This document shows positions 1,006-64,000 of a stretch of 64,000 nt of DNA, in pieces (the first letter of the stretch is position 1; every line of letters begins with the position of its first letter). Position numbers and translations under genes: made by a program. The notes beneath the pieces were generated by a model, which had not been told where the DNA came from, did no database searches, and saw nothing but the letters and a program-made list of their open reading frames with translations. This stretch comes from Chlorokybus atmophyticus (taxonomy: Eukaryota; Plantae; Mesostigma and Chlorokybus algae): contig RHPI01002503.1 in assembly GCA_009103225.1 (NCBI GenBank), forward strand, positions 1,063,076 to 1,127,075, written 5' to 3'.

Positions 1006-1007
1006 TC

Positions 1008-1019
1008 TGGTATCGGAGC
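1008..1019 (+). promoter_or_regulatory. Primer-binding site (tRNA-iMet type)
   Basis: TGGTATCGGAGC 2 nt after the LTR end; close to the canonical TGGTATCAGAGC. Confidence 0.85.
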
Positions 1020-1099
1020 AAGGTTTACGGAGGTGAGAGAGGAAGTGTGTGGGCGTTTACACTTTATATTCGGAAGCGGAGTGTAGTGTGTTAGTGGAG

Positions 1100-4000: not shown

Positions 4001-5713
4001 ATGGCGCTACGACAATGGCGTTGTTATTTGGAAGGCAAAAAGTTCGTGCTTGAGACGGATCACTCTCCATTGAGGTACTTACAAATACAACCTCATCTAA
4101 GTCGCAGACAAGCTCGTTGGCTTGAGTTCTTTCAACTTTTTGACTTCGATATCAAGTACAAGCCCGGTACGTCAAACGGTGTTGCTGACGCGCTGAGCCG
4201 GCTTAATGCAATTGAGGCCCTGGCTCAAGTGCAGCCCGAGTGGACCAACCAGATTCGGCAAGTGCTTCGTGAGGACGCGGAGGGTATGAAAGTGTTGCAA
4301 GAGCTGCAAAATGCAGCTACGGACACAAGTGGGCATTGGTCAATGCGCGACGGGCTGCTTTGGCACCACGGGCGCTTGTACATCCCCAACGTCGCGCATA
4401 TCCGTGTGAAGTTGCTGAAGGAAGCTCATGACGTGCTCATTGCTGGTCACCAAGGGTTGGAGAGGACTTTGGCAAGCTTGAAGCAGCGTCTTTACTGGCG
4501 AGAGATGCATCGCGATGTTCGCGACTACGTGGCGTTGTGCGACGCATGCCAAAGGGTGAAGGCAAGCAACCACAAGCCAGGTGGGTTGCTGCAACCTCTC
4601 CCTGTGCCATTATCCAAGTAGGAGCAAGTTACCATGGACTTTATCACGGGGCTACCAAAGACAAAAGAAGGGTACGACGCTATACTTGTGTTCGTCGACA
4701 AAACCAGCAAAATGGTACGCTTGGCACCGTGTAGTGAGTCTTGCACGGCACCGGAGGCAGCACGCTTGTTCGTGAAGCATGTGTTTCGTTCTCATGGATT
4801 ACCACGAAGCATTGTGAGTGATCGCGACCCGCGCTTTACAAGTAAGTTTTGGGAGGCGCTGCATGGTGCACTTGGTACCACACTGAAGTTTAGCACGGCA
4901 TTCCACCCGCAAACTGATGGGCAAACGGAGCGGGCCAATCGTGTGATCGAGGACATGCTGCGTTCCTACGTTAACGCGCGACAACACGATTGGGCGGAGC
5001 TGCTTGAGTTGGTGAAGTTTGCGATCAACAACCACCACAATGCAAGCACAGGTGTCACTCCCTTCCTTATGAACTACGGGCAACATCCATTGACACCGTT
5101 GACGGCATGGACACCGCGACGACATGACGTGCGTGTGGAGGCAACCAATGACTTCCTTACAAAGTGCGCGGACATTAATAAGGCAGCTAGGGAGGCGCTA
5201 TTAGTGGCACAAAATCGGCAGAAGCAGTACGCGGACGCGCATCGCCGACACCTCACGTTTCAGGAAGGCGACATTGTGTTACTCTCCGCGAAGCACGTAC
5301 AGGTGCGTACGGGAGTTCGCAAGCTGAATAAACGCTGGTTGGGACCATTTAAGGTCAGCAAAGTTGTCTCGGACGTGGCGTACAAGCTGGAGCTACCCGA
5401 CACCATGCGTGTGCACCCCATTTTTCACGTCTCCCTTCTGAAAGCATATCGAGGACAACCGCCAGAAAGGCCGCCCCCCAAAGTTGGCACGGACGGTGAA
5501 CCAGAGTGGGAGGTAGAAGACATCCTTGGTGAGAAGTTTGTGCATGGCGTACGCAAGTTCTTAGTGAAATGGAAGGGCTATCCGTTGCATGAAGCATCCT
5601 GGGAGCCAGAGGCACACTTGACTAATGCTCAAGACGTTGTGCGTGCCTATCTTGCTCGACGACAACCTCGCGAGCTTCGAGGACGAAGCTCACCTGGGGG
5701 AAGAGGAGTGTAG
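1100..5713 (+). pseudogene. gag-pol polyprotein (Gag with CCHC knuckle, aspartic protease, RT, RNase H, integrase, chromodomain), inactivated
   Basis: Motifs: CYACGSTEHLAYGC, LMIDSGAN, YLDN (catalytic YLDD mutated), ILACDASDTAVGAVL, integrase H-H-C-C and FHPQTDGQTER, chromodomain EWEVEDIL..KFLVKWKGYPLHEASWEP. One frame interrupted by stops ending at 1291, 3541 and 4621. Confidence 0.95.
5696..5708 (+). promoter_or_regulatory. Polypurine tract
   Basis: GGGGGAAGAGGAG immediately before the TG start of the 3' LTR. Confidence 0.9.
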
Positions 5714-6380
5714 CAGTCAAGGCCAAATTTTGTGATTTTCATGGCCGTTTTAGGCCTTATTTGTAAGGTACATGTTTTTTATGACTCGTGGCGGTTATCG
5801 GCGAGTTATGAGTCTGCCGCGGATATCGACCGGGGCCCCAAGACCAGTCCGGAAAGTGCCAGAAAACGGAGGGCCAGTCGAGAAGGGCTCGACCAGATTT
5901 CTGGAAGGGCCTGGCGCCAGGTAGTATAACTTGACCATATGAGCAGCAAATTAGGAGATCTTTGGTGCGTTGGAACGGTCTAGAAGTGTACTACAAGATT
6001 CTGCAATTATATCTTAGCTTCTAGTTCCGTGCAGCGCTAGAATCGTCTAGACAGTAGCATGTGCAGACTGGTAGGTATAAAAGTGACCATCTACAATTTG
6101 CAATACAACCTTTAGCTCCCTTGTTTCTTGTGTGCAAGCTTGGTGGTGGCTAGAAGGGGTTGCTAGCGTGTGTCCACTGGTGTGTGCTTGCTTGTGTGAC
6201 GATCCAAGGCGCTACACAAGTCGGTGTGTAGCTTCGAGCGCATGCGCGTGCGTACGCGAGTGGCGGGGCGCGCGTGTGTGCTTGGCAGAGGGGGCAAGGT
6301 TCCGGTGTGAATACCGTGTCTTGGTGAGAGGGTTGTGGATTGGACCAACTCACAGGTGACAAGGCACGAGCACCGTCACA
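5709..6380 (+). repeat. 3' LTR (672 bp, TG...CA)
   Basis: Begins TGTAG after the PPT, ends TCACA, and its last 460 bp match the 5' LTR. Confidence 0.95.
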
Positions 6381-6381
6381 C

Positions 6382-7260
6382 GGTGACATGCACCAGCTGC
6401 CAGCCGTATGCCATCATCGTGGTACACCATGCTTACAATGTCAAATCACGACCAGTCACTGGTGGACTGATGCAAAAGTTATGCATTTGACAAGTTCTAT
6501 CCGACAGAAACAAGATCCGCACTTCACGCGATTTCTTTCGCAAATCCGGCACGCTATTCCTTCGAGCGAACGAATATGAGAGGTCTTAGCATCGTGCGTC
6601 TGTGATTTCCAAACCGTCTTACAAACTCCAGGAGAAATCACGGTCATTTGTTCCCATGTTGTCGACACAATGGTATACAACCATCTCATATTGCAGAAGT
6701 TGTTCCCTGATGCGGTAATTACACAAGTTAACATCAAACACAACTTGCCTGACAACATAATAGACACAAGAATTCTGCAGTTTTAAGAAGAACCTAACTT
6801 TCACCGCATGCAATCGGTGTGCATTGGTGCACGTGTACTCTTCATGAAAACAGATACCCGTCCGGCTATCACGAACGGCTCTACCGGTACTGTCACCGCC
6901 ATTGAACTAGAAACAGATTCGTTGCTAGCTGACATCAAGGCAATCCACGTGCAGTTGCATGACATTAATCGCATAGTCCGGGTCACCCGCAGCGACCGAA
7001 AATACTGCTATAACACACGGCAAACGTACTTCAAACGTACATTCCCTATGCAATTGGCCTATGCTGTCACCGCCCACAAATGTCAAGGAATAACCATTGC
7101 ACATACCGCATACATCGATATTCAACACGCTTTCTGCTTCGGCATGTGGTAAATAGCGCTGTCAAGGGTGACACACAGATCCTACCTCAAGTTAAAGGAA
7201 TTGCCCGCACCACAAGATTTAACACCGACACAAACGTTTCAAAGCAACGAACGAGTCTAA
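6382..7260 (+). pseudogene. PIF1-family (SF1B) DNA helicase, C-terminal half, cut at motif III by the LTR
   Basis: One frame reads GDMHQLPAV, LTSSIRQKQDPHFTRFLSQIR, TNGSTGTV, FPMQLAYAVTAHKCQGITI and GMW*IALSRV. In-frame stops at 6577, 6784 and 7150. Confidence 0.88.
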
Positions 7261-7672
7261 CACGTTGCAAAATACGCGTGGCCTTCTGCGAAACGTCAAG
7301 ACGTGTTAAAATGCCAATATGCATATACGCAGTAAGATCGAAGTAACGTATGAATAACGCTAACTTACATGACCTAACGTTATGCGTAACGCCATGAACG
7401 GATAAGGCCATCGGCATATCACACCAGTCTCATCCGTTGTGATAGGCCGCGGCTTAAGCGCAGCGGCGCGGATAGCCGCATAAAGCAATCGATATGTCAC
7501 TCCAGTAGCATCAGTCGCAATAGGTCGCGGCTTTGGCGGCGGCGGCGGCGGCAACGAAACCACCATTGTTTCAGAACAGATAGGCCAGCCAGCGGCGCCG
7601 TCGAGAAGCCGTAAGTTTTGTGAAACGTCGCGTGCCATTCGTGTCAGAGCATTAACTTCCTGTGCGACACAG

Positions 7673-8865
7673 ATGGCTGACCTCTTCAGCGCTGCGTTCG
7701 ATGCTGCGGTCAAGCAGCTCGACAAGCTTGATCCGGCAACAGACACTCCGTTGAGGGACGAGCCGCTACCTTGGACTGTCAACCAACGGCGGTTGCTGGA
7801 CAGCCATAGGTACTTACCGGAGGAATACTATGACCGCTACGACATTTCCTACAACGACATCGACCGCATGATCACTAAAGGAAGACAGAACGAAAAAGAT
7901 TGGAAGCGCCAACATCAGCAGGAAGTCGGCGCACCTACAGGTAAATGAACCACACGTTCATACTGAGTTTGTAATGACTACAAAGTTGCAAATTGCTACT
8001 GTTCTTGGTAACACCCCAATGATTATCTAACAAGGTCGTGCATTAGGATCCGCCAAATACTTCTTCGCCAAGTTTGGCAAGCAATTCGGCCCAAACATGA
8101 ATAGGTACGACGCGTTCAAGGCGCTCAGCGAGATCATGAACCGGGAACTCGGACGCGACGTAAAGACAAGGGTCATTCAGACAGTACAGCTGTTGGAGAT
8201 TATCTTTTAATGCAAAGCAGCAACGTGGGAAAAGTGCAAGCATCTAACTCAAGAAAAGGCAGCCAAGATCGTTATTGCACTGGACAAAATCGCTGAAAAG
8301 GAAGGAACAACACTGACACCCCAACGTCATAGAAAAAAGATGACTTATCTCCAGGACTGCTTCGACATTGCTTCGCCATCAATATCCCGACGCAATCAAG
8401 CATGTCCACGGTAACACCAACCAGCGCAGAGACCACCACAAAAAAAAAACACACTGGATCCAGCGTGGGAGCCAGCAATACCACCTTTACAAACTGCCGC
8501 ATACACCAACAGGTACAGTACGCATGTGCAACTCGTACATACCCTGCTACAACACAAACAATAACCACCAATTGTTAGGTGGTGTGTACGTGGGGCAATC
8601 CGTTCATCCCCACCAGCGGTACACCCAACACGCACGTAAATCGCCCCAGAAAGTGAAAGATGTGTTGATAGATGCCCCTTTTCAAAAACAAGTCACCATG
8701 GAGGTGATGGGTTCCTACGACTTGCAAGCAGAAATCGACGCGGCGAAAACCGCGCTGACGCTGAAGCTGCGTCGTTAAGGAGTGCCCAACTTGAATACCT
8801 TGGTGGGAGCACCACTAAAGACTCGCCAAGGGTGGCTGTTCAAGCGGAACGACATTATGAAGTAA
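7673..8865 (+). pseudogene. Spliced gene ending in a GIY-YIG endonuclease domain
   Basis: GT-AG introns 7941-8034 and 8513-8578 give HLYKL-HTPTGGVYVGQS...RYTQH and a distal helix plus LN motif (AEIDAAKTAL...GVPNLN). Stops at 8208 and 8776 and a frameshift near 8370. Confidence 0.75.
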
Positions 8866-9261
8866 ATGTCGCCTCCTCATTAAACATTACATGGCATTTG
8901 CTGTATTAGTTGCAACTATATTCCCCAGCATAAACCCGAATAGGTGTATGATTCATGCATGTTTTGCAAATGAAAGCGCATTTGTTAAAAGCGCCTTCCC
9001 CACACAAAGCAAAACACATAGTAACAATATGTGCGACATATAACATTAAAGGCGAAAAACATCATCTGTAATCAAAACTGCCGCACAACTACACGGCTAC
9101 AACTAATAACAACAAAAATCTAAAGTAACCTCGCTACTAAGGCGGAGGACTACCCTCCTCCGACTCCTCGTGCTCTGGCTCCGAGGGTCCACCTCCGCAT
9201 CCGGCGGACCCACCTCCTCCAGGATCTCCTCGATCTCTTCCTGCCGCCGCTGCACTCCTCG

Positions 9262-10201
9262 TCACCTACGACGCCACGCTGCTTTATCGTCCTCAGATGA
9301 AGGCGGAGACTCACATGTCTCTGCTTCTTCGGAGGGCTCCTGGCCGCGGTCGAGCGCCCGCTGCCGGCAACGTGCTTTCGCAACGCGCTGACGCTCTTTG
9401 CGGATGCGGCGCTTCGTCTTCAGCTTCGCCTTCATGATGCGACGGCGGTTGACAATGATGTTGATGTGCCGTGGGTCATGGGCTTGCCACTCGTGAAAGT
9501 CGACGGTGCCGGGGTTCAAGGCATCCCCGCGGAAGACCTTGCTCAGATCACTGTCCTTCTTCATAATTGTGACCCGACGACCATGAAGAGCAAGCAGGTT
9601 CCTGCATCATAACATATTAACATTGACACAACATGTCAAGCATCAATCATAAAACGCCTGCCACCAAGAACAAGCACACAACTCAACTTACATGTCATGC
9701 ATGTATTCGGTGACAAACATGTCCCCAGCATTCTGAAGTGCATTCAGAGCTTCAGCCCTCCAGCGGAAGGTGGGTGTGTGAAACACGTCAGCTGCAACAC
9801 CGCTTCAGTATATATGCAATTATAACAATTCAAATACAGATTACATACCGTATTTCTTGTCAGCAGCGTTAACACATCCGCGCACAACTTTGCTTAAAGA
9901 CAACTTGGGGATGACTGGAGCGGTACTCTTCTGCATCCGCCGGATTTCGCGCAGAGCTTGCGTAACGCGTGGCCTGCATGACCACCCAATTACCAAAAAG
10001 TACATATCAAGACATATGTTAAGACATTTGCTTACTTGCGGCGAGGACGCGCGGGAGGTGCAACCGGCAAGGCTTGATCATGTGCGACAATTGCACCTGC
10101 GCCAGCGGGTGCAGCGGCGGCAACAACAAACCGCCACCAGGACCCCGAGGACGCGGGTAGGCACCATCGACGCGACGACTGCACTGCTTCGTGCATGCCA
10201 T
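9262..10201 (-). pseudogene. Divergent histone H3 variant (CENH3-like) with C-terminal extension
   Basis: Exons 10201-10036, 9973-9849, 9791-9692 and 9601-9262 are joined by phase-compatible GT-AG introns. They read MACTKQ...RPRRKPRVTQALREIRRMQKST...RWRAEALNALQNAG...MNLLALHGRRVTIMKKD. One frameshift lies in exon 1. Confidence 0.88.
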
Positions 10202-10659
10202 TGCCAACACCTACAAACCTGCCCCGAACTACACTCAAGCACGATGATACACAATAGCAGCGACGCAACAACAACTGAGCAGAGCTCAAAGACGTTTTAA
10301 AAATACCAATGCGCCACACGATCCAAAAGAAACACATATGAGCCGCCAAAACGTCGAGGCGGTTTCGCCTGCACAATCGGCTGCCAATTGGCCTACGAAA
10401 CAGCCTGTGGAGCCGTCACCACCCTAGCCCTAAAAGTGCCATTTCACAACAAGAATATGCCGATAACCGTACCTAGTAAACGCGATCGATGCTAATGTGC
10501 ATGACCGCGGTTAACAAACACATGTACAGGCGGGCAGTGAGCATCACCGCTGGTCAAAGAGCCATCATTGGTCTCATGTCGTTTTGTGCACACATGCGAC
10601 GGAGTCGTGGTCCGTATCTATGGTTCATGGCTGGTGCGCGTCTCATGATTTAGTTCAAA

Positions 10660-10855
10660 TCATGGTTAGTTGACTGGCGGGCTACAGTCAGAGCGGTCGT
10701 CAATTGACCGGCAGTAGTAAAATGCAGCGAATCAACTGTGCTTGGCTGCTAACTGCGGTCAGCTGCGGCAATTGAGCCGCAGCTGACCGCAGTTAGGCCG
10801 CCGCTGCTGGTGGCCTGATGCTCCATACCGAGAGCACTCGGCCACGCTGCTAACC
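10660..10855. repeat. Inverted copy of the 1-200 repeat with a perfect 21-bp hairpin (10749-10796)
   Basis: CTAACTGCGGTCAGCTGCGGC-aattga-GCCGCAGCTGACCGCAGTTAG. Confidence 0.85.
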
Positions 10856-10945
10856 AGGTCATGCCGGTCGCTACTAGGCCAACATGGTCAGGTCAAGGGC
10901 GGCGGCCAGGCCATAGGCCATGGCTTTTTTCACCGCCGCCGTCTA

Positions 10946-10993
10946 CAGCCTGGCCTGCTGACACACACAGCCTGGCCTGCTGACACACACACA

Positions 10994-11044
<51 letters not shown>
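10946..11044 (+). repeat. 22-bp tandem duplication running into a (CA)n microsatellite
   Basis: CAGCCTGGCCTGCTGACACACA twice, then (CA)n. Confidence 0.9.
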
Positions 11045-48629: not shown

Positions 48630-51435
48630 GAGTATGCCGTTTGTAGTTGGTGTCATAGCTGTGTATAAGATTACAACTTGTATATCTGTGCATTTACCAT
48701 TGGTCAGCTGGTTAACAACATCGTTGTGCAGCCCTGGTTTCTCCCGTATATAAGGTATGGCATCTGTATTTATGTTTTGGCATAAACTCATGAACATGGT
48801 GCACCGAATCTGGAGTGTTGCACACCCTAAATGCAGATGCTGAGTGCAGCATGAAAACGATGTGATACTACACATCAATCAATATGTATGTTGGGTATTG
48901 TGACCACACTAAAGTCCTTGAGACACTGTTGCAGCCAAGAGACTGATCCGCAATCTCTAGAGTTCCAGGGTGTTGTGGTTAGAACATCATGCAGCGTCCG
49001 TATCTCTCAGCCAGGATGCCACAGTGTCCATCCGGTCACATAGGGTATAGCAAACACAAATCCCATGCCTTCATCACACACATTCACTCAAGCACGCTGT
49101 GACACACGCACACACGCACAAACCAACCAGCAAGCCAGAGCGTACCAATTGGTTACACAAAGCCAACAACTAAAAGAAATAAGGGGGCTGGGCTATGTGC
49201 AGTGCTGACTTATGACGGCTGCAGTAGCTTCCAGTAGCAGTGGTACCTGCAGCCGCAGGAGTCATATGTATCTCCCTCAACAGCAGTGGCATAACGCTAA
49301 CCAGCTCGCGAGCAATGATTGTATCAAGCAACAACCAGTGAGTTACAGGGACTTACGCGGTGCCCAAGTAAGTACAGGTAAGCACGCACATGAGGGGAGC
49401 AACTGGTCTGCCCTCATGCAGTCTTATAGGGGCTAGCAATGCTATGCTATGCTATTGCTGCTATTGCTGCTGCTTATGTTGTGTGTACGCACTGCAGAAA
49501 CACGTTACACCTTACAAACAGTTATCACATGCCTTGGGTAAAACTACAGTTGTAGTTTTCATCAGGTATTATAGGCCTTGAATACTGTAAAGATCAATGC
49601 ATTGACTTTTGTGGTCATCATAGCAAAAGATTGAAATGAAAATAATGCAAAAGTGAGTGCGGGTTGTAATTTATGTGTCTATGCGGTACTAAGTGATAGA
49701 GTGACACTTTCATTACGATGCTGTGCCTAATGTCGTAACTAGCGGCTTCTGCCTATTGTCTACTGTGCGCTAACTCACTAGGCTTCGCGCGCTGGCTGAC
49801 ACAACACATGAGACCAGCATCCCGCCGTCAAAGAATCATGAGGATTGGAGTGTGGCGGGGAAGGGAGCGGGCGTAGAGCACAGCACAACACAGCATACCA
49901 CGTCACATCACGTCTGCTTACTCCCGCCTCCTGCACGCACTCCGCTAACTGTGGCCTGTGCGCCTCAGGTTGGTTGCTTCGTACGTTGCCCTGCTACCGC
50001 TGCTGCCTGCCTCACACGCCCACCCACCCACTCATTGCATTGCACATACAAGCACTTAGCATAGTAGTGCCCCGGGTACAATGTGATTGTGCCAGCGTGT
50101 TTTGATTGCTTGAATCATTGTTGGCTTGTGACCTTGTGTGAGCTTGTATCATACATGATGTGCACGGACGGTGAGCATGTATGAAAGATGACTTATACCC
50201 TATGCACTGCGTGGTGCCCCTCAACAAATACCATGCACCGCATCATGTATCCGCTAATCACACACACATCCATGCCCACCAATTGTAAAGGGTAAGGGAT
50301 ATGTAGAAGTGAATGCATGGCCGTATGATGTATTACTAGCGACATGGCTGAATCACATTGTGACAAATCGCTATTGAAGCGACCCTAGCTCATGTCGTTG
50401 TTGCGGGAGTGAGAGCGCTTTAATTCTCGTTGGAACCTCGAAGCGAAGGCCCGACAAGTGTTGTCATTCACGGCATGTAATATCGCATGCTGTTCACGTA
50501 GTCGGGGGCTCAGTCGGGATGCAAGCACAAACAACTTACTGAAGTAGCTCGCAATGATACCAATATCAACTCGCTTTATATTTTATGGCAAGGGAACGTC
50601 CTGTAAGTGATGATGTTGAATACGTAGGTTGGACTGAACACGGGATTGCGTAAGTTACAAAGGATAAAACCCTCTATAAAGAAAGACGTGCAATAAGTGC
50701 AATTATTTATGCTCCATCCTCCGTTGACAATTCCCGAACATATGCGCTGTCACAAACTAGTAGCAGTAAACCCATGGCTAAAATGGACAATGGTAAAAAA
50801 CTCTGCAAGCAATAACAATCCGACTTTTCAACATTTGCCGCATGAGATGTCTTTATTATTAAACAGTTATAAGCAATACTGACCATCTTGTAGTGTCGTG
50901 CGTCGTGCCCAATGATGTGGTGTCTGATGGTGTTGTGCATAACATCACCACACATGTTTGGCGATGGCCGAGCGTGATGACCGAGTGAGTCTCTTGCAGT
51001 TGCAGCACTTATTAGCTCACAAATAGCGCGGGGGACGGNNNNNNNNNNNNNNNNNNNNNNNNNNNNNNNNNNNNNNNNNNNNNNNNNNNNNNNNNNNNNN
51101 NNNNNNNNNNNNNNNNNNNNNNNNNNNNNNNNNNNNNNNNNNNNNNNNNNNNNNNNNNNNNNNNNNNNNNNNNNNNNNNNNNNNNNNNNNNNNNNNNNNN
51201 NNNNNNNNNNNNNNNNNNNNNNNNNNNNNNNNNNNNNNNNNNNNNNNNNNNNNNNNNNNNNNNNNNNNNNNNNNNNNNNNNNNNNNNNNNNNNNNNNNNN
51301 NNNNNNNNNNNNNNNNNNNNNNNNNNNNNNNNNNNNNNNNNNNNNNNNNNNNNNNNNNNNNNNNNNNNNNNNNNNNNNNNNNNNNNNNNNNNNNNNNNNN
51401 NNNNNNNNNNNNNNNNNNNNNNNNNNNNNNNNNNN

Positions 51436-51468
<33 letters not shown>

Positions 51469-51844
51469 AATTTCCCTTTGTATATGCCTAAGTGCGCATA
51501 GTCATTGCAAGTTGAGAAGACAGATTGATCAATGCTCAACTAAATGGCGCAATTATGCGCATTACCAAAAATGGCTAGGCGGAATGCAATGTCTTGAGAT
51601 GTAGCATCAAACCTTGCGGCTTGCTCTCTTCACCGTCCGTGCCACCTAGAGACATCCACACTAGTATGTTCAGAGCCACAGAAGGCAAGCACAGCGTGCA
51701 TGCATGATGATGCCACCTGTTGCATTGGCAACAGTGGGGGGTATCTACACAAAGCATTCGTAATGCACCATAGAAGACAAGCACAGCGTTCATTAGCACA
51801 CCCGAGGCCTCCTACCCTTATTAAGGGCACAGCGTGCATGCATG

Positions 51845-53220
51845 CAAGGGACAGATTGGGTCTGAATGAGGAAGCTGCTCCTGGCACATTCTGAATTACA
51901 AACTTGACCTGGCTTGCAAGCAGCAGACGTCGGACGAGCGGTATCATATTCTGGTGTCTCCAGGATGTGCCATGTGCCGCCCGTTGAGGTGCTGGGATAG
52001 CACCTGAATAGGCCTAGCATGGTGGACTGGCCCAGATGAGTTCGTACTCGCTCAGCTCTCCTACACTCAGGGTGCATACTTCGCGGTGTATGAAGGGCAG
52101 CGGGTACTCAGAGAAGGGACTTATGTCCATCCCGGTCACGTCAAAGCCTGCGTGGTATAGACCGACACTGGCACCGCCACCGCTGCAGAATAGGTCGAGT
52201 GCCCTTGGTCTGCGTGTGCGTCCCAGCTTGTTGTAAAATGGCGTGTATGTGGTCAAGGCTGGCCGTGGTGCTGGCCAGGGACTAACAATGATGCCGTCCG
52301 GGCTTACTTTGCGACTGACGTTCTCCCCTCCGGCGCGCAGATTATGGCGTGCCCCGTCAACTGATGTGTACGCGAATACGTTGTGCCCTTTGAAGTTGAT
52401 GGTTTGTGGTCGATCACCGTCATCGAATACTATACGGTGCTGCCCTGCAAAGACATTTTCCATTGCACCATGCATATATGATGCGTCCTCAATCTCGCAC
52501 GCCACGAAGCGATGCTGACCTAACGCTTGCTTGAATGATTCCACAACGCCCGCATACCATTCCCCATCCAGCGGCCAATGCACCATGACACTCACACCGA
52601 TCAGCTGCTCGCATCCCAACTTAACTGCGTTCCGCAGCCGATGCAGTGCGCTGTCCAACGGTTGATGGTCTGCCTCCTCTACAGCGGCCAGGGGATGGAA
52701 CTGCCCACGCCCACACCGTGCAAGACTGCTCTGAATGCGACAACAGCTTCAACATGCATGAATTAAGCATACGCCCAACATAACATGCAGTGATACGTCG
52801 CGGTCCACTCTTGTGGATTACCTCCACAGCATCCACCACCTGTCCACTAACCACATGTCCCGGTGTTGTCCATGTGAAGAAGCGCATGGGTTCCCCTCGC
52901 CACTCGAAGCATGAGCGCGAGCACGATTCGCATATGCACTGCACGCAATGGAAAAACTTGGGTTCCTTGCACAGTACTTTGCCGAGGCGGCAGCCAAACA
53001 CGTCGACATTGTGTGTGGTGTGATGCCAGCAAGCAGCACTCAAACCGTGGCCTACCGTTTGCACTCGCTGGCATTCGGTCAAGTGTGCTCGCATTTGCTG
53101 CCTACGGTCATTGACACATACGTACGCATTGCGTTGTGGGCACACCAAGCATGGTCTCCTAAGAGAGGGGGATTCAATTGCTGCCGCCGACATCATGCAA
53201 AACATGAATCGGCTGCCCAC
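51845..53220 (-). pseudogene. Cys-rich plus Tudor-like domain fused to a cytosine-5 DNA methyltransferase (motifs I-VI), truncated
   Basis: LIGVSVMVHWPLDGEWYAGVVESF..HRIVFDDGD (Tudor; 75-nt intron 52519-52445), RALDLFCSGGG (motif I), IWASPPC*AYS (motif IV, stop at 52014) and, in the same frame, FVIQNVPGA (motif VI). Confidence 0.82.
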
Positions 53221-53316
53221 AAACTGAGCGAGACTTTAGGGTATGGGCATCAATTTGGGGTTGCCAGCTTACAAACCCTAAATGAGTCACACTTTAGGAA
53301 GCACGACTATACCATG

Positions 53317-53356
53317 GACGGTATTACAGTACCATGCAAAGTACTGTAATACCGTC
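53317..53356. repeat. Perfect 16-bp hairpin
   Basis: GACGGTATTACAGTAC-catgcaaa-GTACTGTAATACCGTC. Confidence 0.9.
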
Positions 53357-53694
53357 TAAGGTATATCAACATGAATGGTACTCCATCCATAAATGGTACT
53401 ACAGTACAAGGATACTGGTATACTACTACGATCGTAGAGTAATACTGTGCTGTCATGCCATGGAACCCAGAGCGCTGTCCGAGTTTGTTGCTGTCAATCA
53501 CGCTCTGAACCTGCAAGGTATGCAAGCCATGCACTGACTCATGCGCCGGGCAGTCGTCATACACATGTACAGCCAATGCTTCTGACTACAGCAGATCTCG
53601 GGTGCACCATGCTGCAACTATGCACGTACATATATGGTTCACAGGAAGCCAACACAAAACAAAAATACATGCATAATTGCCATCATGGCGGGGG

Positions 53695-54693
53695 TCAAAT
53701 CACCGCCGACACATTGGCGTCTTGCAGCAGGCGTGGCGACCAAAACGGGTGAGGTTGCTTGCAGAAGGGACACGCTTGTAAAGTCTTTGATTTATTTGCC
53801 ACGCACTTTTGATGTACTATGATGCAGACATGGCACATCGCTTTCTTGCAACAGGGCGTCTCCCCATCCGTTGGGGGGGGTGGCTCTTCAATGCAACAAA
53901 TCAGCACGCATGGCGCACGCGTGTGTGCAAGCTGCCTCTGCCACCAAACTCTGTTATCGCGTTGCAGGCGCAGCGACTCCCATCTGAATGGCACAGCATA
54001 ACGCTCCACTGCCTGCTCGACCACCTGACGCCCATCTGCCGCTATACAACACCTGCTGGTCTTGGTGGTCTCGTCCAGCATGCGTTCATCCAGGCCCTCG
54101 ACATGGCTATCGTCACTCGTGCAATTGCCCGCATCGCCATCTTCTTCAAGCTTCCACAGAATCAGCTCGACGTGCCGTATGACATACAGCCACTGCCAGC
54201 CAAAGCATGCCAAGTACAGCTCGAATGGTTTTACTTGCCACTTAGTATGTTTGCTCAGATAGTGGCACACATCTCGACTCGCATCAGTCGACATCAACAG
54301 GTACATCTGTTGCAGCAGGTCGAGGTTCTGCTCCACGGATAGCTCTTGCACATTGCCGGGTTGCTGCGGCAGCAACAACACCATCATATCGAGGACCGCA
54401 AGGGGCAACAACGTATTACGGATGGCCATATCGTGTATGGGTTCCAACCACGGCCAATCCCCAGAGGTCTGTTTAGACCGCACTCTCCGCGTTTGCTCCC
54501 ACTTATTGCATACTTTCGTCACCCACCTCGAGGCATGCCGCATGCCGTTATGCAGCGCGTCTTTAGCGTACTGTAGGGTGATCAACTTCTCTGCACTACG
54601 AGTCAGACCCTCAAAGCGTCTGCGCGTCGGTGCTTTGAGCTTGGACAGCTCGTGCCGCACCGGCTGTCTCTCAAGACAATGCTGAGCAGCCAC
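53695..54693 (-). CDS. ORF with C-terminal RING-like zinc finger (possibly one exon of a larger decayed gene)
   Basis: 332-codon open frame ending CVLICC...PCCKKAMCHVC...CPFC. Confidence 0.6.
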   Translation of the reverse strand: MAAQHCLERQPVRHELSKLKAPTRRRFEGLTRSAEKLITLQYAKDALHNGMRHASRWVTKVCNKWEQTRRVRSKQTSGDWPWLEPIHDMAIRNTLLPLAVLDMMVLLLPQQPGNVQELSVEQNLDLLQQMYLLMSTDASRDVCHYLSKHTKWQVKPFELYLACFGWQWLYVIRHVELILWKLEEDGDAGNCTSDDSHVEGLDERMLDETTKTSRCCIAADGRQVVEQAVERYAVPFRWESLRLQRDNRVWWQRQLAHTRAPCVLICCIEEPPPPTDGETPCCKKAMCHVCIIVHQKCVANKSKTLQACPFCKQPHPFWSPRLLQDANVSAVI

Positions 54694-55343
54694 ATGACGC
54701 TGTAAACCCGCATGTGCCTACTTCGGACACACAGTCAGCCCCAGTGAGGCTTCAAGGCACAGTGCTTCTTCTAACATTATAACAATGCCTCACCTTTGCT
54801 TTTTTGTTATTGTTAGCATCCCTTGTTCCAACAACCTTATTCTTTTTTTTTTGCGTCAACTTGCACATCCTGGCAGGCGCTCTCCGTGGCACTGTCACTT
54901 GGAGGAGGTAAGGCGTTATCTTCTTGCTCCACAGCCTTGCGCTTATTGGTTGCCTCCCGTTCCTCCACGACCTCATGTTGCTTCATGAGATCGAGCATAA
55001 AGCCTTTGTCTTTCAGCGCAGCTTTTAGAAAACCCCGATCAATCTCTTCACCAATAAGACAGGCTGGGATAACTGTGGCAAACTTAGAGGGAGAGGGCGA
55101 GCTACAGCTGCTTTTTGATGGAGATACCTTTGGATGGTCAGAATGCGGTGGCGAGTGAGTCTCCGCAGCAGGAAGGGAAGGTGCTGAATTGGTTTTACGA
55201 GCATGTGGCTGTGGTTAAGGGGAGGCAGGATGTGCGGAACAGTCGGCTACTTCTTGCCTAGCACACGATGGCGAGGCCTGAGGCGTTGGCGCAGCACCCT
55301 GGGTCGCAGCCGGTGGTAGCGGGGAATTGGCAATGCCATTTCG

Positions 55344-56718
55344 CTACTCTTTAATCAGGTCTGTTACCGGTGGCACTTCATGCATAAACCACGACCATTG
55401 TTCGGTGCTTGCAGGCTTGAGGAGCTGAAAGTGTGCTTCTGGCTCATCAGAAGCAGTGTTGCCCACCACCAGGGTTGAATTTAGGGCGTCTTTATTTCCA
55501 ACCCAAACTGCGCTGCCGGGCCGTGGCACCCACTCCCCATGCTCGCGCTGAACGGTCACGCAGCCAATCAACAAGCCCAGCTTGTTGGCAAACATGGTCA
55601 TTTGCAGGTGCTCCACGTACACATCTTTTCTCCGTACGATCTGTCGCACCTTGGCCATAGCTATGTCAATGTTGCAATTGATATCAGTTAATATGGTCGC
55701 AAGCAGTGTCGTAATACTGCGCCATCTCTCCCACAGCATCAATGGCTCTGCGGAAGTCTAGGATTCTGCTCGCCACACCTGCATCGACAGCCTTGGCGGT
55801 GATTTTGCGGAGAGTGTCCCCCCTGCTGTCGTCGTCCATGGTGTTCAGCATGGCCCCAAATCTGCTTGAGCTGGGGCACTTGTGATCATCCAGGACACTT
55901 TGCGCTATGGATGGCCTGGCGTGAAACACACAATGATTGAAGCAATTACCATCCCTTGGCGCATTGAAGTGGTCGTATGAGGCGAGCTGGCCACCTAGCA
56001 TGACTGATGGCCGTAGCGGGTTGCGGCCAGCTCCTCTGGTGACTCGCTGGCAAGCGGTGACCCCTGCTGCATGCGCATACAGCACTCAAATGGTGTGTCC
56101 AACTGTCGACGGCAAGAGTCACAGCGACTAATAAAGTACCTGAGCTTGGGGCAGATTGCCGGCTTCAACTTGCAGCGTGTGGGGTAAGGTAGGTGCAGAA
56201 GCCACATCGGTTGTTGCATTGTGCTGTGGTCTCGCCGGTTGCGGCAAGAGGGATTGTTGCCCCGCAATCACCAGTGCTGCTCGTGGAGGAGACGGCAGTG
56301 CATGATGGACTGGTGCCGCGGAAGGTGGATGCGCTCTGGCTACGAGGGGAGCAGATGCGGCAGGAGAGACCACTTGTGCATGCAGCAAGGGGGGCTGTAT
56401 ATAGGACCCAGGATAAGATGGCTCACAATGTTGCAAAGGACGAATAAAAGCTTATGCAGTGTCTGACGCATTGTTACCAAGGCACAAGCATAAAAGACAA
56501 TGACCTACCTCAATGGCCCGTGGGCTCCATGAAGCAGGGGAAGCCATGGGGGCTGACAAAGTGGTATTGGGTGCACTCTCCTCCCCACCCTCAATCGCAG
56601 ACTCGTCACGGAGCTCGTGAGCCATGGGCACAGGATGCGCCATAGCCCCAATGGACATGTCAGGATTCATTAGGCCAACATGCATGTTAAACTGATGCCG
56701 CATTGCCGCCGCGCCCAT
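55344..56718 (-). pseudogene. OTU-like cysteine protease (deubiquitinase) domain with Pro/Ala-rich upstream exons
   Basis: Cys-box APRDGNCFNHCV (~55940), helix YVEHLQMTMFANKLGLLIGCV and His-box EAHFQLL (~55435). The domain is split by a frameshift near 55700-55740. Confidence 0.65.
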
Positions 56719-58114
56719 TCAGCAAGTGGGATTGAAGGACCAGTTGATGGGATTGAATTCAGGCTTGCATAGGAGCTCCAACAGGATCTAGTGCACTGTG
56801 GTGCTGTCAACCAGTCACATGTGGGTTAGCTGCATGCTTGTGACACTGCAATTGCAATAGTCAACTGCGTCACACCGTCATCAGTTGGTTGCTTTGAACA
56901 GTCACCTGCGGCATTGCTGGTTGATGCGTGCATGATTGCATGAACTACGTCATCGCTGGTTGATGCACTACAGGTTGAATGCCGGACGCATGGCCACGCG
57001 CTCCTGTGCTCAACCCAGCCTATTTCGTTCGGCACGCGCGCGCGACTTCGCACGCTCATGCACATCCTAGCATGCAAATGTAGGCATGCATTGGAGGTGC
57101 AAGCGGTCAACATGCACAGCGAGATTGGCAACAACATACCGCCGCCCAGCTCTTTCTATCTGCTCTGGCTTCCGCAATATCAGCTTGACTGTGGGGTGGG
57201 TATGGGTGAATAGTGGAGGCCTGCAGCCACGCTACATGTATCACATGGACTGCGCAAAAAAAACAATGCTCTTGCAAGGAAATGCATGTGATTGTTGAGC
57301 GTACCTCTTCATTCCTTTATGCTTGTTCCCATAGTCGCAATTGGTCCCGCATGGGTTCTGACAAGGGGCTCCAAGGATGGCAGCTCCTGATCCACTCCTT
57401 GTTGCAGAAAGCGAGCCACCAAGCAGCTCTCTGTGTGAAGATGGTCCTTAATGGCTTGCCTGCTGGTTTGTCCAATGTTGGTGATGCATGTTTGACAGCC
57501 CCATTGCTGACGCCTGCCATGATCCATGACGTGGCGCCCGGTATTAGCTGGCTTCGCTGCTTGAACTCTTACGACCAAAACTTCTCGCAAGATGTGACAC
57601 GTTGCCGCCGCCGCCGCCGCCTACTCCTGGTTCTCCGCCTCCTAGTCAAACCCAGGTCCATTATGCCTGACATTCGAGCCGCTATAAACGTGATGCCCCT
57701 GCGTGCCATCATTCGGCCATCAATGAAACTGTTTGGGTGAGTGCACGCTAACTCCCATTAGGGCTGGTCGAGCAATGCCTCTGTCGTACCATGGATGATA
57801 TGTCAGAAGCATAGTACGCTAATGGCTGGGTTGGACGAGAGATGCCTCTGTCGTACCATTAATGTTACGCCCAAGCCATTGTTACCCTTGGTTGTACGAA
57901 GCATGGATGGTACGAATGCATAAGTTGTACCATCAACCATTGGAGAAGGACGCACTACAAGTGCTACTCTAGTGCGGGACACTAGACGTTAAAAAACGCC
58001 TCATTTTCGTTTTCGCGCCTCGTACATTTGGGCGGGCCACCTGGCGGCGGCAGCGTTAGATGCGGCAGCGCCACCATCAGCTAAGCAGGCGGCACCCGAT
58101 TATCACATAGAGAG

Positions 58115-59953
58115 ATGCCTTGTGGTCTATCTGCAGGTGCACCTCGTCGTGGAGGTCGGCGCCATCGGTCCACATTGCCCCCAGTGTTCAACCAGGCAAC
58201 CGTCGCCAACCAGCAGCAGCCATTCTTGGCCAACCAATCGCAGCAAGACCCCGCGCCAATGCCCAGCCCATCGCAACAACTCCACCTGACACCGCAGTCG
58301 CAAGGGCAAGCTAGCATGCATGCGTTCGTAATGCACTGTGCACGTTGCTTCTTGCTCAACTTCAAAGTTTTATAGCTCGCTTCTTTCATGACTGGCACAG
58401 TGACTCACTGCATGCGTTCTGGATACACTGTGCACGTTGTTTTTCTTGCTCAACTGTGAGGGTTGCGCCTTTCATGGCTGGCAGCACGAGTCACGTGGTT
58501 GTGCTTGCAGAGGGTCGATTGGAACCCCCAACCCAAACGCATTTGGCCGTGACGTAGCAACTCCGGCCGTCAGCAACCCTTCCCCAAGCAAGTGGAAGAT
58601 TGGCAACGAGGTAAGCACTGTAAGACAAAATGACACTATGTGTAACGGATTGTTCTTTTGTGGACGGCATTTGCGATGCCGTCGTTGAAATCATAAACGG
58701 CCACTGGGTAGAGAGCCACGTTTATCCCAAAGAGGACACTATTCTGTGCTGTAAATGCTGTGAATGCTGTGAATGCTGCATGACCTCACTGCACCGTGAC
58801 ACTGACCAACCTGCCTGTGACAGGTAGTTAGATTCGACCATGACGACGAGGCCGATGCGGCCAAGTTCTATGAGGTGTATTGGACGCCCAAGGAGTGCCC
58901 CTTCCACTGGAGTGTCGCCTTGAAGAAAGCTACGCAGGTCCGGTCCGAGAATGTCACCAAGATCAAGCATGCTCTTGACAAGGAGTACAGGTGGACACTG
59001 TTTAACAGTAATAAGCGCAAGTGAGTTTGGTCCCTTACCACCATGTCTGCTATGCAACATTGCCTTCCTACTCGACCTCCATACACACGTACGCATCTCG
59101 CCTATTGTAACCGATTCAATCTGGCACATCGATGCCCTAATGGACCCCGAGACCCAAAAAGCCCAGATGCGCAACGCGCTCCAAAGTAAATCACAGGCAC
59201 TATTCTAGCCTATTGCAGGCTCAACCTGAACTATATCTATATCGTGACTCATGCCTTGTTGGTATGACTCTCGCAGACAAGTCATGGCAAAAATTTGAGG
59301 TGACCAACAATGCAGACCCGGAGCGGAGGAGATACATCCATGAATGGGGCAATCTCATAATTTGGCAAATGATCGTGCAATGCTCTTGCGCCGTCACTAC
59401 ACCTGGTCGCCGGCAGCCGACAGTCAACCACCTCGCATACCTGTTGCTTACGGTGAGCACTCTGAACTCAATCACTAGCAATTCAGGAATGCTGTAGCCC
59501 CAAACTACAGGCTTGCAGTCGCGCTGCAGTGAATAGTGGCTTTTAATGCCACTAAGACATGCATGTAAACTACGCAGGTGGAGCGCATTCTAAAGGGCAA
59601 GGATGGAGACCCTCTCATAGCTACCAGCATCGACACACATGAAGAGTACTCCAGCAATCAACACCATGATCATGTCAATGAAGCGGGAGATGAGGCAACG
59701 GTACGCAGCCCTCCACTCATTCACCTTTGTGAAACGCCGCACTGAATCTTGTGTCGAATACCTGAAAGATCCCAATCGCCGGCCGCAAGAGACGGCAGCT
59801 CGTGACCCGCTCGCGGAGGCAGAAGCGGCATTTGATTGGCTTGCGCAACCATTTGAGGAGGAAGAGCAAGCTCCGGCGTCTCCGCTACAGGCCTCAGCGC
59901 GTGGTGCCTTGTTCCATGATGACGAGCAAAGCGATGATGGTGAGGAGCTGTAG
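58115..59953 (+). pseudogene. Uncharacterised multi-exon gene or pseudogene, divergently oriented to the OTU/RING/MTase genes
   Basis: Exon-like segments with GT/AG borders (KWKIGNE|VVRFDHDDEAD..., ...HLAYLLLT|VERILKG...) and an acidic C-terminus ending at 59953. Not all phases could be reconciled. Confidence 0.4.
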
Positions 59954-60359
59954 CGCAGTTGGTAGTCCGTTTACCTGGTAGTGTACACAGCTGCAAGGCT
60001 CTTGTGACTTAGTGTTGTGCAGCTTAAACCAGCTCAGTCAATCGTCATTATGCTCATGCATGTCAATACTTACATCCCTATGATATACAACGGAACTGCA
60101 TGCATTCGAGTCACATAATCGAACTACAAGCCTTGGCAAGTGACTGAGAGACACTGCACACATTTCAGGTACCTGTACACAGCACATGCACAATTCGATG
60201 ATGGCAGCCAGTGACAGTCGCGTGTAGTCATGCTATGCAAATACATATAACGACAGTTAGGCATCAGTCACCTTCAGTTGCTTAAGGAATGCCTTATTTT
60301 ATTGATAATTACCTAGTTGGTGCTTGTGAATTAGGCTCAGTCGCCTGCGCTGGACGGGT

Positions 60360-60570
60360 GTGTAACCTGCAGGTGCCTGTCACATAGGCTGAGTAACCTA
60401 AGTAAGACTGATGTGTAACTTGCAAGTGCCTGCTAATAGGTGTAGTCACCTGTTAATGCCTGATGTGTAACTAACAGGTGCCTGTTAATTAATCATAGTG
60501 ACCTGTTAAGGATTTATAAGTAACTAACAGGTGCTTGTTAATTCAGTATAGTCACCTGTTAAAGACTCAA
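60360..60570. repeat. Four diverged 52-53-bp tandem units
   Basis: Units start at 60360, 60413, 60465 and 60518, sharing GTAAC..CAGGTGCCTG..ACCTGTTAA. Confidence 0.8.
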
Positions 60571-61139
60571 CTGTAACGGAAATTGCCTGATAGTAACGAG
60601 AGTTGTACTCAGGTCCCTGTATCAAGATTATAGGTAGACTGAGCCACGACAGTCTATATTAGTATCTTTAGGGGCACGGCCGTTGCCAATAGTTAGTCGG
60701 CCGGAAGGAGAAACATTTTGCGATGTGCACACAATAACATGTATAATATTTCAACCAACAAACGACCATCACAAATCCCATATTGTACTCCCCTTCAACA
60801 GATAAGAACACCAAGCGACACCATCATCTGCGTGTACATCAGCATGCAGATCCATGTGCACGCCGCCAATGGCAAAAGCCATCAACCTATCTTTGCGGTT
60901 GCACTATTACTTTTGTCATACCACAGCATCGGTGTGCAATTGATCGCACACACAACAGGGGATGCGACATTACACATTGACAATTGAGTTTGTTAGTGTC
61001 TCACAATTAAGGTGCTTTGCGCTACCCCTACTGGTACATACGCATAAGAGATGGTACGCTAGATAAGCTGCATGCAAAGTGTCACACATATCATGGTATG
61101 CATCGTGTCAAGCTCATGCCACACGCAAGCTCACCACCC

Positions 61140-62200
61140 ACACTTCATAAAAGTTAACCACCGGGCTGTCTACCACGCTACCTAGCACACTACCTACCCC
61201 GTTAGCCATAGCAGCATGCATGTCAGTCAATCACTTGCACGGGTGCAGTTCACAGCGTCAGACACGCCGAGTCAAGTGGTTGACATAAGCAGTCAGCAGT
61301 GTGCGCATGCAGCATCCCCGCCCCTCCCTCTCTCCCTCCCATTCTCCCTCTCCTCCGCCACATCTTCCTCTCCGCTGCGCTGTCAGTCGCATGGCGCTGT
61401 AACCCTTGCTGCTGCACACGGAGCAGGGCCCTTCTGCCCCGCCCCTCCTCCCGACCCTCGCACAGGGCCCTTCCCTTCGTCTTCATCGCTCACTGGTCGC
61501 TGTCATTCGCCATGCAAGTGGTAGCAGAGCTGCTGCTGCTGGCCGTTCGGCAGTCTGGTGCTGCTGGCAGTTAGGTGCTGCTGGCGGGGTTGGGTGGTGG
61601 GGTTGGTCTTCTCCGCCGTCCGCACGGGCAGGCTGCCTTACCGTGCACTTGATGCTGTTGCTGCGTCTGCAGTGATGGCGCTGTCGCTGCCACGATGCCT
61701 GCACATCGCTGCGAACACGACCTTGTACAGCAGCTGCGGTGGTGTGCAGTATACGTACGCATTGTTGGTGAGCATCTGGTGGCGTAGCGTCGCCAACAGG
61801 CGCTTCAGCGGGTGTCCATCCGTTTGCATCGCTAGCAGCAATGCCGTCATGGCATCAATGAGATGTGTGCGGTAGGAGCAGATGCGTACAAACCTCGCAT
61901 AATGCGATTCTACTACGCCCAGCGGCAAATTTGACGTTGGCAATGGCGCGGTGCCTTGGTATGGCGCTGTAGGCTGGCAGCTTGTGCTTGCTGTATAGCT
62001 TCACAATGCCCAGCTCAGTTTGGCAGAGCATCAGGTCCAGAAATGGCAGTGTGGTGCTGGCGGCCATTCTAGTGAAAATGAGAATGTCACGTGGGTACAC
62101 ACCTCCCCCCGGCACGTTGGGGGGTGGGTGGGTGGTTGGGTGGTTGGGCTCCCTGTATAGGGCATCCGCAAAACGTGCCAATCCCTGCCTGCCGCTAGTG
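61140..62200 (-). mobile_element. 5'-truncated Penelope-like retroelement: RT C-terminal/thumb fragment plus 3' non-coding region
   Basis: GGVYP..LPFLDLML..KLYSKH (61855-62181), frameshifting into SNLP..GVVESHYARFVRICS..L..GHP (61638-61943). This pattern is typical of PLE RT thumbs. Confidence 0.6.
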
Positions 62201-62713
62201 TAGTCTGATAAGCCTGTCTACATGTCCTGCTTTGCCCATAGCGCATGAAAACACCACTACTCTAGTCCAGTTGTGCTAGCACGTGTGGAGTTATTGTATA
62301 TGGTTGCTTGCTAGTATATCTAGTGTGTTAGATCTGCTTGTGTTCACGGCCCCTCTACGTTACCATGAGCATGTCTGGAATAAATATATGCAGCATCTTG
62401 CACTTACCCCAATCAGGCAGAGTGTGACATAGGTGCCTGTACGGAACTATGACTCCAAGGCCACTCAGTGGTGGTGACTGATGTGTTGCCATATGCAGTG
62501 TACATACAACGCGACCTGTATATGTGTGCCGAGCAGCCAGGCACTAAGCTACTAACAACGCACAATGTGGCGACAATGCACTTGCTATAGAGTTGCTATA
62601 CAGCGTGTTCGAACAACCACGTGCTCCCTATCCCTCTGCGACAATTGCTCGGCTAGAATGGGTGCTGACTAGAATAAAATACAAGCCCTATACATGCTAT
62701 GCAGTGACAGCTG

Positions 62714-63881
62714 CTAGCCTTTTATTAGGCCTCGCAATTCGTACAGCATCTTGACGGCAGACCTGGATTTGGGGCCTTCCCAGACGACCTACAAGCAAAC
62801 AGAGCGTTGTCATAAAGTTGACATGAGCAATACCTCAAGACAGGCACAAACAGTTATACATGCAATTGCATATCCCGCAGGCCTAAGCAACAAGCACCCA
62901 GCACTTGCCTTGCCACATTGGCCGCACACCCAAAACTCATGTACTTTCTCCCTCACGTGCGCAGGCACGAGGTGAGCGATAGACGCAGGCTCGCATCGCT
63001 CAAACAAGGCGGCATTGCAGCTAGCACAGCGACTTAGCAATCGACCGTGCTCGAAGGTGATGCCGAAATGTGTCGCCACCTGGGCCAACTGCAGCACACC
63101 AGCTTATCAGCATGCATGGTGCAGTGTCATCATAAACTCTGGCAACCTGTGGCATCCTATACTGTAGGCACGAGGCAAGTATGTCGCTGTGCGTTATGAG
63201 CCAACACTTCGGCCAGAGAAGGCAGCCAAGGCATGCAAGCAGACAACAGCAGTATGAAGAGATATGGGATGCAGCAGCTAAACCCTATGACCTGCTGGCG
63301 AGGCTCGTCGTAGTCTACATAGAAGATGCTCGCAGCAGTTACGCTTGTGGCATCCGTGCGACAGTCTCGAAGCCGCCTCTCTCGAGTTAGAATGGTGCGT
63401 CGCTGCTCTATAGCTAGCTGAATTAATTGATTGCGGGGCAATGACCCAGCGAATTCCACGTCTACCTGCAACACAACAGACCAGTTGAGCCTCTACACAG
63501 CTGCTCCACTTGATGACATGCATAACCTTCTACCTCACCCAGCTAACATCTTGAAAACGAGGCAAGCTTAGCATACAAACCATGCGCACTCAATATTTCA
63601 AGTCTTGCTTGCATGCATCCAGTGCATGAAGACGCCAGCTAGCACGCACTAGACACACTAGTGCTAGGAATAGACACCTCACCTACAAAACAATGGATGT
63701 GTCGTACCCCAAGACAACGCAGCCAGCGACCCAGGCGTCCAACGCTGCTGTCTGCAATGAACCGCAAAGACGCACGCGATCCACCTGCCCCAGGATCAAG
63801 CATGCCCGCAGTCACTACACCGTACTGCCACGGGCTTACACAGGTAGACTTGAGCAAGTAAGCAACAGGACCCTCCCCCCC
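62714..63881 (-). CDS. Mut7-C RNase (PIN-fold) domain protein, 3' part; 5' end lies beyond the window
   Basis: FIADSSVGRLGRWLRCLG|VDVE..AIEQRRTILTR..|SRCASCN..FWVCGQCGK|VVWEGP, ending at a TAG at 62714. Confidence 0.88.
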
Positions 63882-64000
63882 TATGCAACAACTTCAAGGC
63901 CAGCATTTGCTGCAGAGAATCCTGGCCTTGAAGTACAGGTTTTGTAAATTGGCACCGTCATACAGCCAACCAGCTGTAGACTGGCAGGCATGCTCTCATT

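Follow-up and report, generated by a model that had tools for sequence, protein, structure and literature searches.

In bdelloid rotifers, N4CMT joins a methyltransferase of bacterial origin to a histone-reading domain, an arrangement described as 'histone-read, DNA-write' (PMC8885841). Retrotransposons of Klebsormidium and Symbiodinium carry DNMTs of their own, known as KnitGypsy-Dnmt3, SymbioDIRS-Dnmt3, and SymbioLINE-Dnmt (PMC5890265), and giant endogenous viral elements of Amoebidium carry DNMTs as well (PMC11244446). ChloroDNMT is often accompanied by a PWWP histone reader, and orphan eukaryotic DNMTs generally have no companion domains (PMC12344493). Transposons are reported to capture reader domains recurrently (10.1101/2021.11.30.470311), and PDB entry 7de9 holds the Tudor domain of Arabidopsis RDM15 with H3K4me1 bound, where E647 contacts H3R2 and the H3R2 pocket consists of E647 and Q654 (PMC8184781). 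These descriptions follow the available parts of the respective papers.

We compared these systems with a gene found in a 64,000-nucleotide stretch of the Chlorokybus atmophyticus genome (hereafter, the window). With confidence only a little above even, we read it as a decayed and truncated gene for a Tudor–phage-type C5 methylase, the intact form of which likely resides in a multi-copy mobile cassette and would direct methylation to nearby DNA under the guidance of H3K4me1. Like N4CMT, the gene fuses a foreign methyltransferase to a histone reader; N4CMT is, however, described as an amino-methyltransferase making 4mC, reads silent marks through its chromodomain, and belongs to the host's own genes, whereas the window gene encodes a C5 enzyme with a Tudor domain predicted for H3K4me1 and likely lies on a repeat. 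The retrotransposon DNMTs are similar in being C5 methyltransferases with intact catalytic residues in an algal repeat, but they are intron-free, lie in Pol or ORF1, and belong to the Dnmt3 or a Symbiodinium-specific lineage (PMC5890265); the window gene differs in its predicted introns, its Tudor domain, its phage-family enzyme, and in having no linked reverse transcriptase in 51440-62800. The word 'tudor' does not occur in the available part of that paper. ChloroDNMT and the orphan enzymes are likewise green-lineage or horizontally gained DNMTs outside DNMT1/2/3/5/6 (PMC12344493), but by their descriptions, in so far as the text is accessible, they are set apart from the window gene, the reader of which is an RDM15-type Tudor and not a PWWP as in ChloroDNMT; PWWP gave no Pfam match with the window gene.

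RDM15 is matched in the exact spacing of the domain and in four of the five methyl-lysine pocket residues after a predicted splice, but it is an RdDM accessory factor, not described as a methylase in the accessible text, and has E647 where the window has P (PMC8184781). The Amoebidium insertions similarly bring foreign C5 methylases, of likely giant-virus origin, into a eukaryotic genome; they differ in carrying viral marker genes and in being mostly intron-free, and the available part of the report mentions no Tudor fusion (PMC11244446). Compact phage C5 methylases (phrog_363 and actinobacteriophage genes annotated 'DNA methyltransferase') share motifs I, IV, and VI with the window gene, spaced equally closely, and are 39-42% identical to the window among the matches listed (20 of 300), but they are stand-alone, intron-free proteins of ~210-250 aa, unlike the Tudor-fused window gene. 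The parts of PMC8557442 and PMC11982613 that were available mention no Tudor–methylase fusion, and we found no report of a Tudor-fused phage-type C5 methylase in the literature covered, which takes in few subscription papers.

The gene lies on the minus strand. Its core is an open reading frame at 52748-52017 (244 aa from stop to stop) that runs from a Tudor-like stretch through a linker of ~70 aa to motif I and IWASPPC and, past one stop, reads on in the same frame as AYS...FVIQNVPGA, so that the Tudor-like domain and C5 motifs I, IV, and VI share one frame as the original prediction had claimed. The methylase part, at 51846..52220, is the N-terminal half of a compact phage-type C5 methyltransferase as judged by profile and phage matches. 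It reads RALDLFCSGGGASVGLYHAGFDVTGMDI..YPLPF, then IWASPPC, and the SAM-binding FxGxGG of motif I is present as DLFCSGGG at about 52200, aligned with homologues. The predicted mutations of PPCQ and ENV were both found: in motif IV, a TAG stop at 52016-52014 replaces the Q of PCQ, and in motif VI, ENV has become QNV with the Q codon CAG at 51893-51891. The gene is cut off at 51846, after motif VI, and the second half of the methylase (motifs VIII-X) was not found in the window, where a six-frame scan with the profile of the relatives matched only profile positions 21-150; the sequence after motif VI is lost, as had been proposed. An alternative code with TAG as Q was rejected because the public sequencing runs carry CAG at this site and TAG ends other frames of the window. 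Folding of the window protein without an alignment gave a pLDDT of 34.8 and was set aside.

The Cys/His-rich exon had been thought to continue in frame into the Tudor domain. The stretch in question (53235-52624) in fact lies in a different frame, and the join holds only through a predicted phase 0 intron of 91 nt at 52731..52821 with a good GT donor (GAG/GTAATC) and a TTCAG acceptor. The resulting predicted exon 1 (52822..53205) is an open frame from an ATG at 53205 to the donor at 52821; the Cys/His-rich stretch had no match in Pfam. Approximately 100 nt upstream of the predicted start lies a hairpin (53308-53365) with arms of 25 nt, 92% complementary, and a loop of 8 nt, at which some of the run contigs diverge.

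For the Tudor domain, the best PDB match was 7de9 (E 1.8e-5), in two stretches 25 residues apart. The 25-residue gap corresponds to the GT..AG segment 52519-52445, and this 75-nt segment also came out on top of the 34 possible in-frame GT..AG introns when scored with a Tudor HMM built from eight Tudor stretches of two plant and algal proteins (39.7 bits vs 33.7 unspliced), which supports the earlier proposal of an intron inside the domain. The exon before it (52520..52730) provides the N-terminal part of the domain with the equivalents of RDM15 W616 and Y623, and the segment after it (52205..52444) provides the C-terminal strand, with F, D, and D in the places of Y641, D643, and D645, followed by the linker. 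With the predicted intron removed, the spacing is exactly that of RDM15; W616, Y623, D643, and D645 are identical and Y641 is replaced by F. The position of E647 is occupied by P, and Q654 is not aligned. From these residues, the window Tudor is predicted to read methyl-lysine, most simply H3K4me1. The two ends of the Tudor intron (52445-52519) are alike in 10 of 12 letters and encode GQHR twice, as if the intron had been born by duplication or insertion.

The methylase half matched phrog_363, a PHROG DNA methyltransferase family, at E 3.1e-16 with the stop read through as X, and 300 phage records matched it at E<=1e-5. Of the two domain families named in the original prediction, Tudor was recovered through 7de9, and the methylase was recovered through phrog_363 but not through Pfam DNA_methylase (PF00145), which gave only a weak match to the truncated half (E 0.0093; 15.9 bits, below the cut-off of 22). 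Protein searches returned mostly stand-alone metagenomic methylases of 210-250 aa with 41-50% identity, the named ones being prokaryotic, and the Atlas neighbours of one relative were mostly tailed-phage clusters. The distance from the catalytic Cys to motif VI is 40 residues in the window, inside the 30-49 of the family. No affinity to DNMT1/CMT or DNMT3/DRM was seen: a profile search against the PDB hit DNMT1 at motif I only (E>=0.005), DNMT3 was absent among the best 60 of the 62 PDB matches of the family profile, and no BAH, chromo, or PWWP/ADD domains were found by Pfam upstream of the methylase. The best PDB sequence match of the compact family had an E value of 3.4e-7. The full-length relative P0274 was predicted to fold as a C5 methyltransferase (pLDDT 76.5), with 10-19% identity by fold to DNMT3, DNMT1, HaeIII, and HhaI, and motifs VIII-X were found in full-length relatives. 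Judged by its sequence and by the fold of this relative, the methylase is a member of the compact phage family and not of DNMT1/3/CMT, and its prokaryotic or phage type, as opposed to a host DNMT, was correctly called. Two proteins of ~450 aa, P0009 and P0010, contain two compact C5 methyltransferase domains in tandem.

The resemblance to orphan bacterial and phage methylases holds for the type of the enzyme but not for its nearest relatives, which form a small group with an inserted MBD domain. Counted from the catalytic Cys, the window and 17 of 325 homologues share a signature with IP at +7/+8 and R at +12. Motifs VI and X are separated by 140-219 residues in ten full-length members of this group, whereas the fetched loci have a median of 90. 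The extra sequence is an MBD: P0140 and P0033 scored above the Pfam cut-off, P0274 and P0276 are so assigned by precomputed family, and marine signature members align with a divergent version of the domain. The four best BLAST scores, computed with no composition correction, belonged to signature members, and an HMM of 11 signature members gave the window 146.9 bits vs 129.9 for the 11 best other homologues, the HMMs of 20 random homologue sets reaching 126.8 bits or less. The phylogeny suggested as a check was divided: in a quick tree of 83 rows, the window fell beside a long branch and outside the signature group, whereas a 37-row tree, with the long branch (P0091) and 45 other rows omitted, placed it inside with support of only 51/30. 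An MBD or MBD-like domain lies between motifs VIII and X in P0033, P0140, P0274, P0275, P0276, P0283, P0287, P0289, P0301, and P0350 and in loci L001 and L003. We found no description of this group of compact C5 methylases in the literature covered, and among 388 proteins and 163 loci, none had a Tudor joined to the methylase.

The five closest signature members come from Logan contigs, and one signature relative comes from the Tara 0.22-1.6 fraction. Marine members (L002-L004) lie on gene-dense, intron-free contigs with eukaryote-like genes, contigs that look giant-virus-like. Scans of IMG/VR yielded no relative with A2, P0301, and P0283 as queries; with the window ORF and A3, it returned ordinary phage-type methylases, none with the signature. 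A degenerate DNA pattern of the signature had 0 matches in viral, metagenome, and genome contigs, blanks that carry no weight because the pattern is too strict for two true members (L001 and L003). Since the nearest relatives are the MBD-insert group and some of these are on giant-virus-like contigs, passage through a giant-virus or eukaryotic intermediate appears no less likely than a capture straight from bacteria. We infer that an MBD-insert methylase was the donor and that a giant virus probably served as the carrier.

Three of the six listed public DNA runs contain the stretch, X1 and X2 from one sample and X3 from another study. Over 51790-52860, essentially all of the depth in all three has 52016 A>G and 51893 G>C, so that the codons at the two lesion sites are CAG (Q) and GAG (E); both PCQ and ENV are intact in the dominant form of each covering run. 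The frame is open from the Tudor to motif VI, and the catalytic residues and the Tudor pocket are retained. The runs leave the window at 51846, the break point where the window leaves the gene (51845..51846) showing loose ends in 3/3 covering runs, and the loose end continues in frame as CGTMFGLSTF (30 letters read), a stretch that alignments show to be conserved after motif VI across the methylase family. One 2521-nt contig of X2 is colinear with 51846-52825 and extends 1541 nt further; because it spans this region gap-free, the Tudor and the methylase are linked outside the window copy as well, as the original prediction required.

As the runs carry intact PCQ and ENV and continue in frame, the window copy is a decayed, truncated derivative. 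Over 980 nt, it differs from the runs by 16 fixed differences, 15 of them coding (12 nonsynonymous and 3 synonymous; dN 2.0%, dS 1.5%), and 11 of 11 transitions in the Tudor–methylase region are toward T/A in the window (P value 0.001). By these counts, neutral decay of a sequence much like the form in the runs produced the window copy.

The stretch covered by the runs starts at 51846 and reaches at least to 60500 (at least 8.6 kb), over which divergent contigs of X1, X2, and X3 evenly cover 29 of 30 bins; its right end lies past 60500, and the left flank (51440-51742) is uncovered. It is flanked by a SNARE gene and a Mut7-C gene, and its own genes have no significant Pfam matches. A 340-aa open frame at 53695..54717 (-) ends in a weakly matched RING-like finger (PDB E 0.19, Pfam E 2.2, Atlas 0.85), the Atlas neighbours of which are mostly Nucleocytoviricota RING clusters (0.85, a lead only). 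Farther along, broken frames at 55347..56085 (-) contain a motif (PRDGNC ... EAHFQL) that we take to resemble an OTU protease; they matched an open frame near the L003 methylase in a pairwise comparison (E 0.002 over 24 aa) and had no Pfam or PDB support. A decayed multi-exon gene with splice sites in the sequence and frame-shifting indels relative to the runs occupies 58511..59953 (+) and had no significant Pfam match. Its CxxH and SWIM-like motifs presumably make it a transposase-like candidate; its CPFHW and CxC...H motifs resemble those of Mutator or Zisupton transposases, but such an assignment had no Pfam or PDB support and is not claimed. Likewise, broken frames at 61641-62217 (-) resemble the C terminus of a reverse transcriptase of the Penelope-like type, and the reading of 62100-61650 as such an end, again with no support from Pfam or PDB, is not claimed. 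At 60335-60577, a 53-nt unit recurs in four to five degenerate copies, which are longer in the runs and may represent the subterminal repeat of an element.

Over 9 kb, transitions toward T/A in the window outnumber the opposite ones by 227 to 108 (X1), and several genes of the stretch are frame-shifted relative to the runs; from this bias and the frame-shifting indels in the neighbours, it follows that several adjacent genes decayed together. In X1 and X3, the main contigs have depths of ~80-150x and occur alongside pieces of 10-18% divergence at 2.5-6x. The two studies also share one diverged loose end without a difference. This pattern fits a young family with older paralogues. If the low-depth pieces are single-copy paralogues, the main form would have ~20-40 near-identical copies, although contig depth is no copy number and X2, flat at 6-9x, fits one copy equally. 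X4 is assigned to the sample of X2 and has almost no words in common with the stretch, and X5 gave no contig that aligned to it. The stretch is likely a multi-copy element. Pfam revealed no transposase, integrase, or reverse transcriptase in 51440-62800, no terminal repeats or target-site duplications of the element, the left end of which is missing, were found, and Rfam had 0 matches in 49000-64000. The divergence from X2 is 1.6% in 51846-52825 vs 7.0% in the remainder (52826-60500; P value 3e-14), a contrast that a simple one-element history does not account for and that suggests a mosaic copy or a recent conversion of the methylase module.

In the mechanism that we favour, a compact phage-family methylase would have passed, probably through a giant virus or else through another eukaryote, and been joined, within a large mobile cassette that bears introns, to a Tudor of the plant type. 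This reader would hold the enzyme on nucleosomes of the H3K4me1 type, where it would methylate nearby cytosines, and the element, or its insertion sites in genic chromatin, would likely gain a host-like methylation mark. The splicing, expression, mobility, and catalytic activity of the Tudor–methylase and its binding of H3K4me1 are all inferred. A bolder version, which we regard as distinctly unlikely, has a recently active mobile element encoding a giant-virus-derived double-reader methylase (Tudor and MBD), dozens of copies of which spread 5mC in H3K4me1 gene bodies, a parasite-run independent invention of histone-guided methylation.

The gene could instead be a domesticated host methylase present in a single copy, which related strains keep intact and the window strain has lost, an alternative that we consider unlikely. 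The canonical, predicted spliceosomal introns and the plant-type reader would suit a host gene, as would the flat depth of X2 (6-9x), the long unbroken main contigs of X1, and the lower divergence of the methylase gene than of its surroundings. Selection fails to explain this low divergence, however, because divergence is just as low at synonymous and intron sites as at coding ones (dS 1.5%); in addition, several neighbouring orphan genes are broken together, and the same diverged low-depth piece occurs in two studies. We consider it rather improbable that the stretch is no transposon but what remains of an endogenous giant virus, invaded by introns and multiplied by segmental duplication, the Tudor having been gained by the virus or after integration. 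Known DNMT-carrying giant-virus insertions, as described in the available part of PMC11244446, give this reading a precedent, and signature relatives such as L003 sit on marine contigs that are densely packed with genes, some of them eukaryote-like, and free of introns. L003 itself encodes a protease and exostosin-like, cold-shock, RING, and DUF3431 proteins, and in its region 7363-11011, OTU-like, RING, and methylase genes are ordered as in the window cassette; the Atlas neighbours of the RING frame, mostly Nucleocytoviricota, point the same way as a lead only. Yet beyond the methylase, this L003 region has no significant similarity to the cassette, nor has any of 80 loci (tblastx best E 0.048), and no giant-virus hallmark (Nucleocytoviricota) gene was found in the decayed 11-kb stretch of the window or in L001-L004. 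The IMG/VR scans likewise turned up no contig bearing the signature, and a neighbour of the L003 methylase had one 38% match there, which is uninformative.

In a third alternative, the fusion is not made as one active protein, being silent cargo, spliced otherwise, or inactive as a DNA methylase in its intact form. The second half of the intact enzyme is known only to 30 letters past 51846, and the compact family has no close solved structure, as the PDB E value and the low identities of P0274 by fold illustrate. We nevertheless hold such a failure to be very improbable, as the runs keep an open frame from the Tudor to motif VI together with the catalytic residues and the pocket, and the full-length P0274 folds as a C5 methyltransferase.

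The design of a reader plus a foreign methylase is known, and the real novelty is the combination of a Tudor with a phage-family C5 enzyme. If active, the fusion would add one more independent instance in which a foreign methylase is coupled to a histone reader, and it would be the first that we have found to use a phage-family C5 enzyme with a plant H3K4me1-type Tudor. Such an enzyme would be small, the intact form being estimated at roughly 450-600 aa, and would link H3K4me1 to 5mC, and it would bear on the targeting of gene-body methylation in the green lineage and on the imitation of host marks by mobile DNA. The MBD-insert relatives are an uncharacterised writer-plus-reader group and may be a route by which enzymes move from phages to giant viruses and on to algae.

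The gene content of the window is that of a eukaryote of the green lineage: a LOV photoreceptor, a protein resembling GT29 sialyltransferases, a SNARE, and Mut7-C are all encoded by genes rich in introns; the best match of the LOV domain, 1n9l, is, we assume, from Chlamydomonas. A chromodomain Ty3/gypsy element spans 546-6380, with LTRs at 546-1005 and 5921-6380 that share 98% identity; stops interrupt its frame at 3539 and 4619. At 6787-8778 (+), Pfam matched the remnant of a helicase C terminus and, weakly, GIY-YIG (E 0.011 and 0.097), possibly another mobile element.
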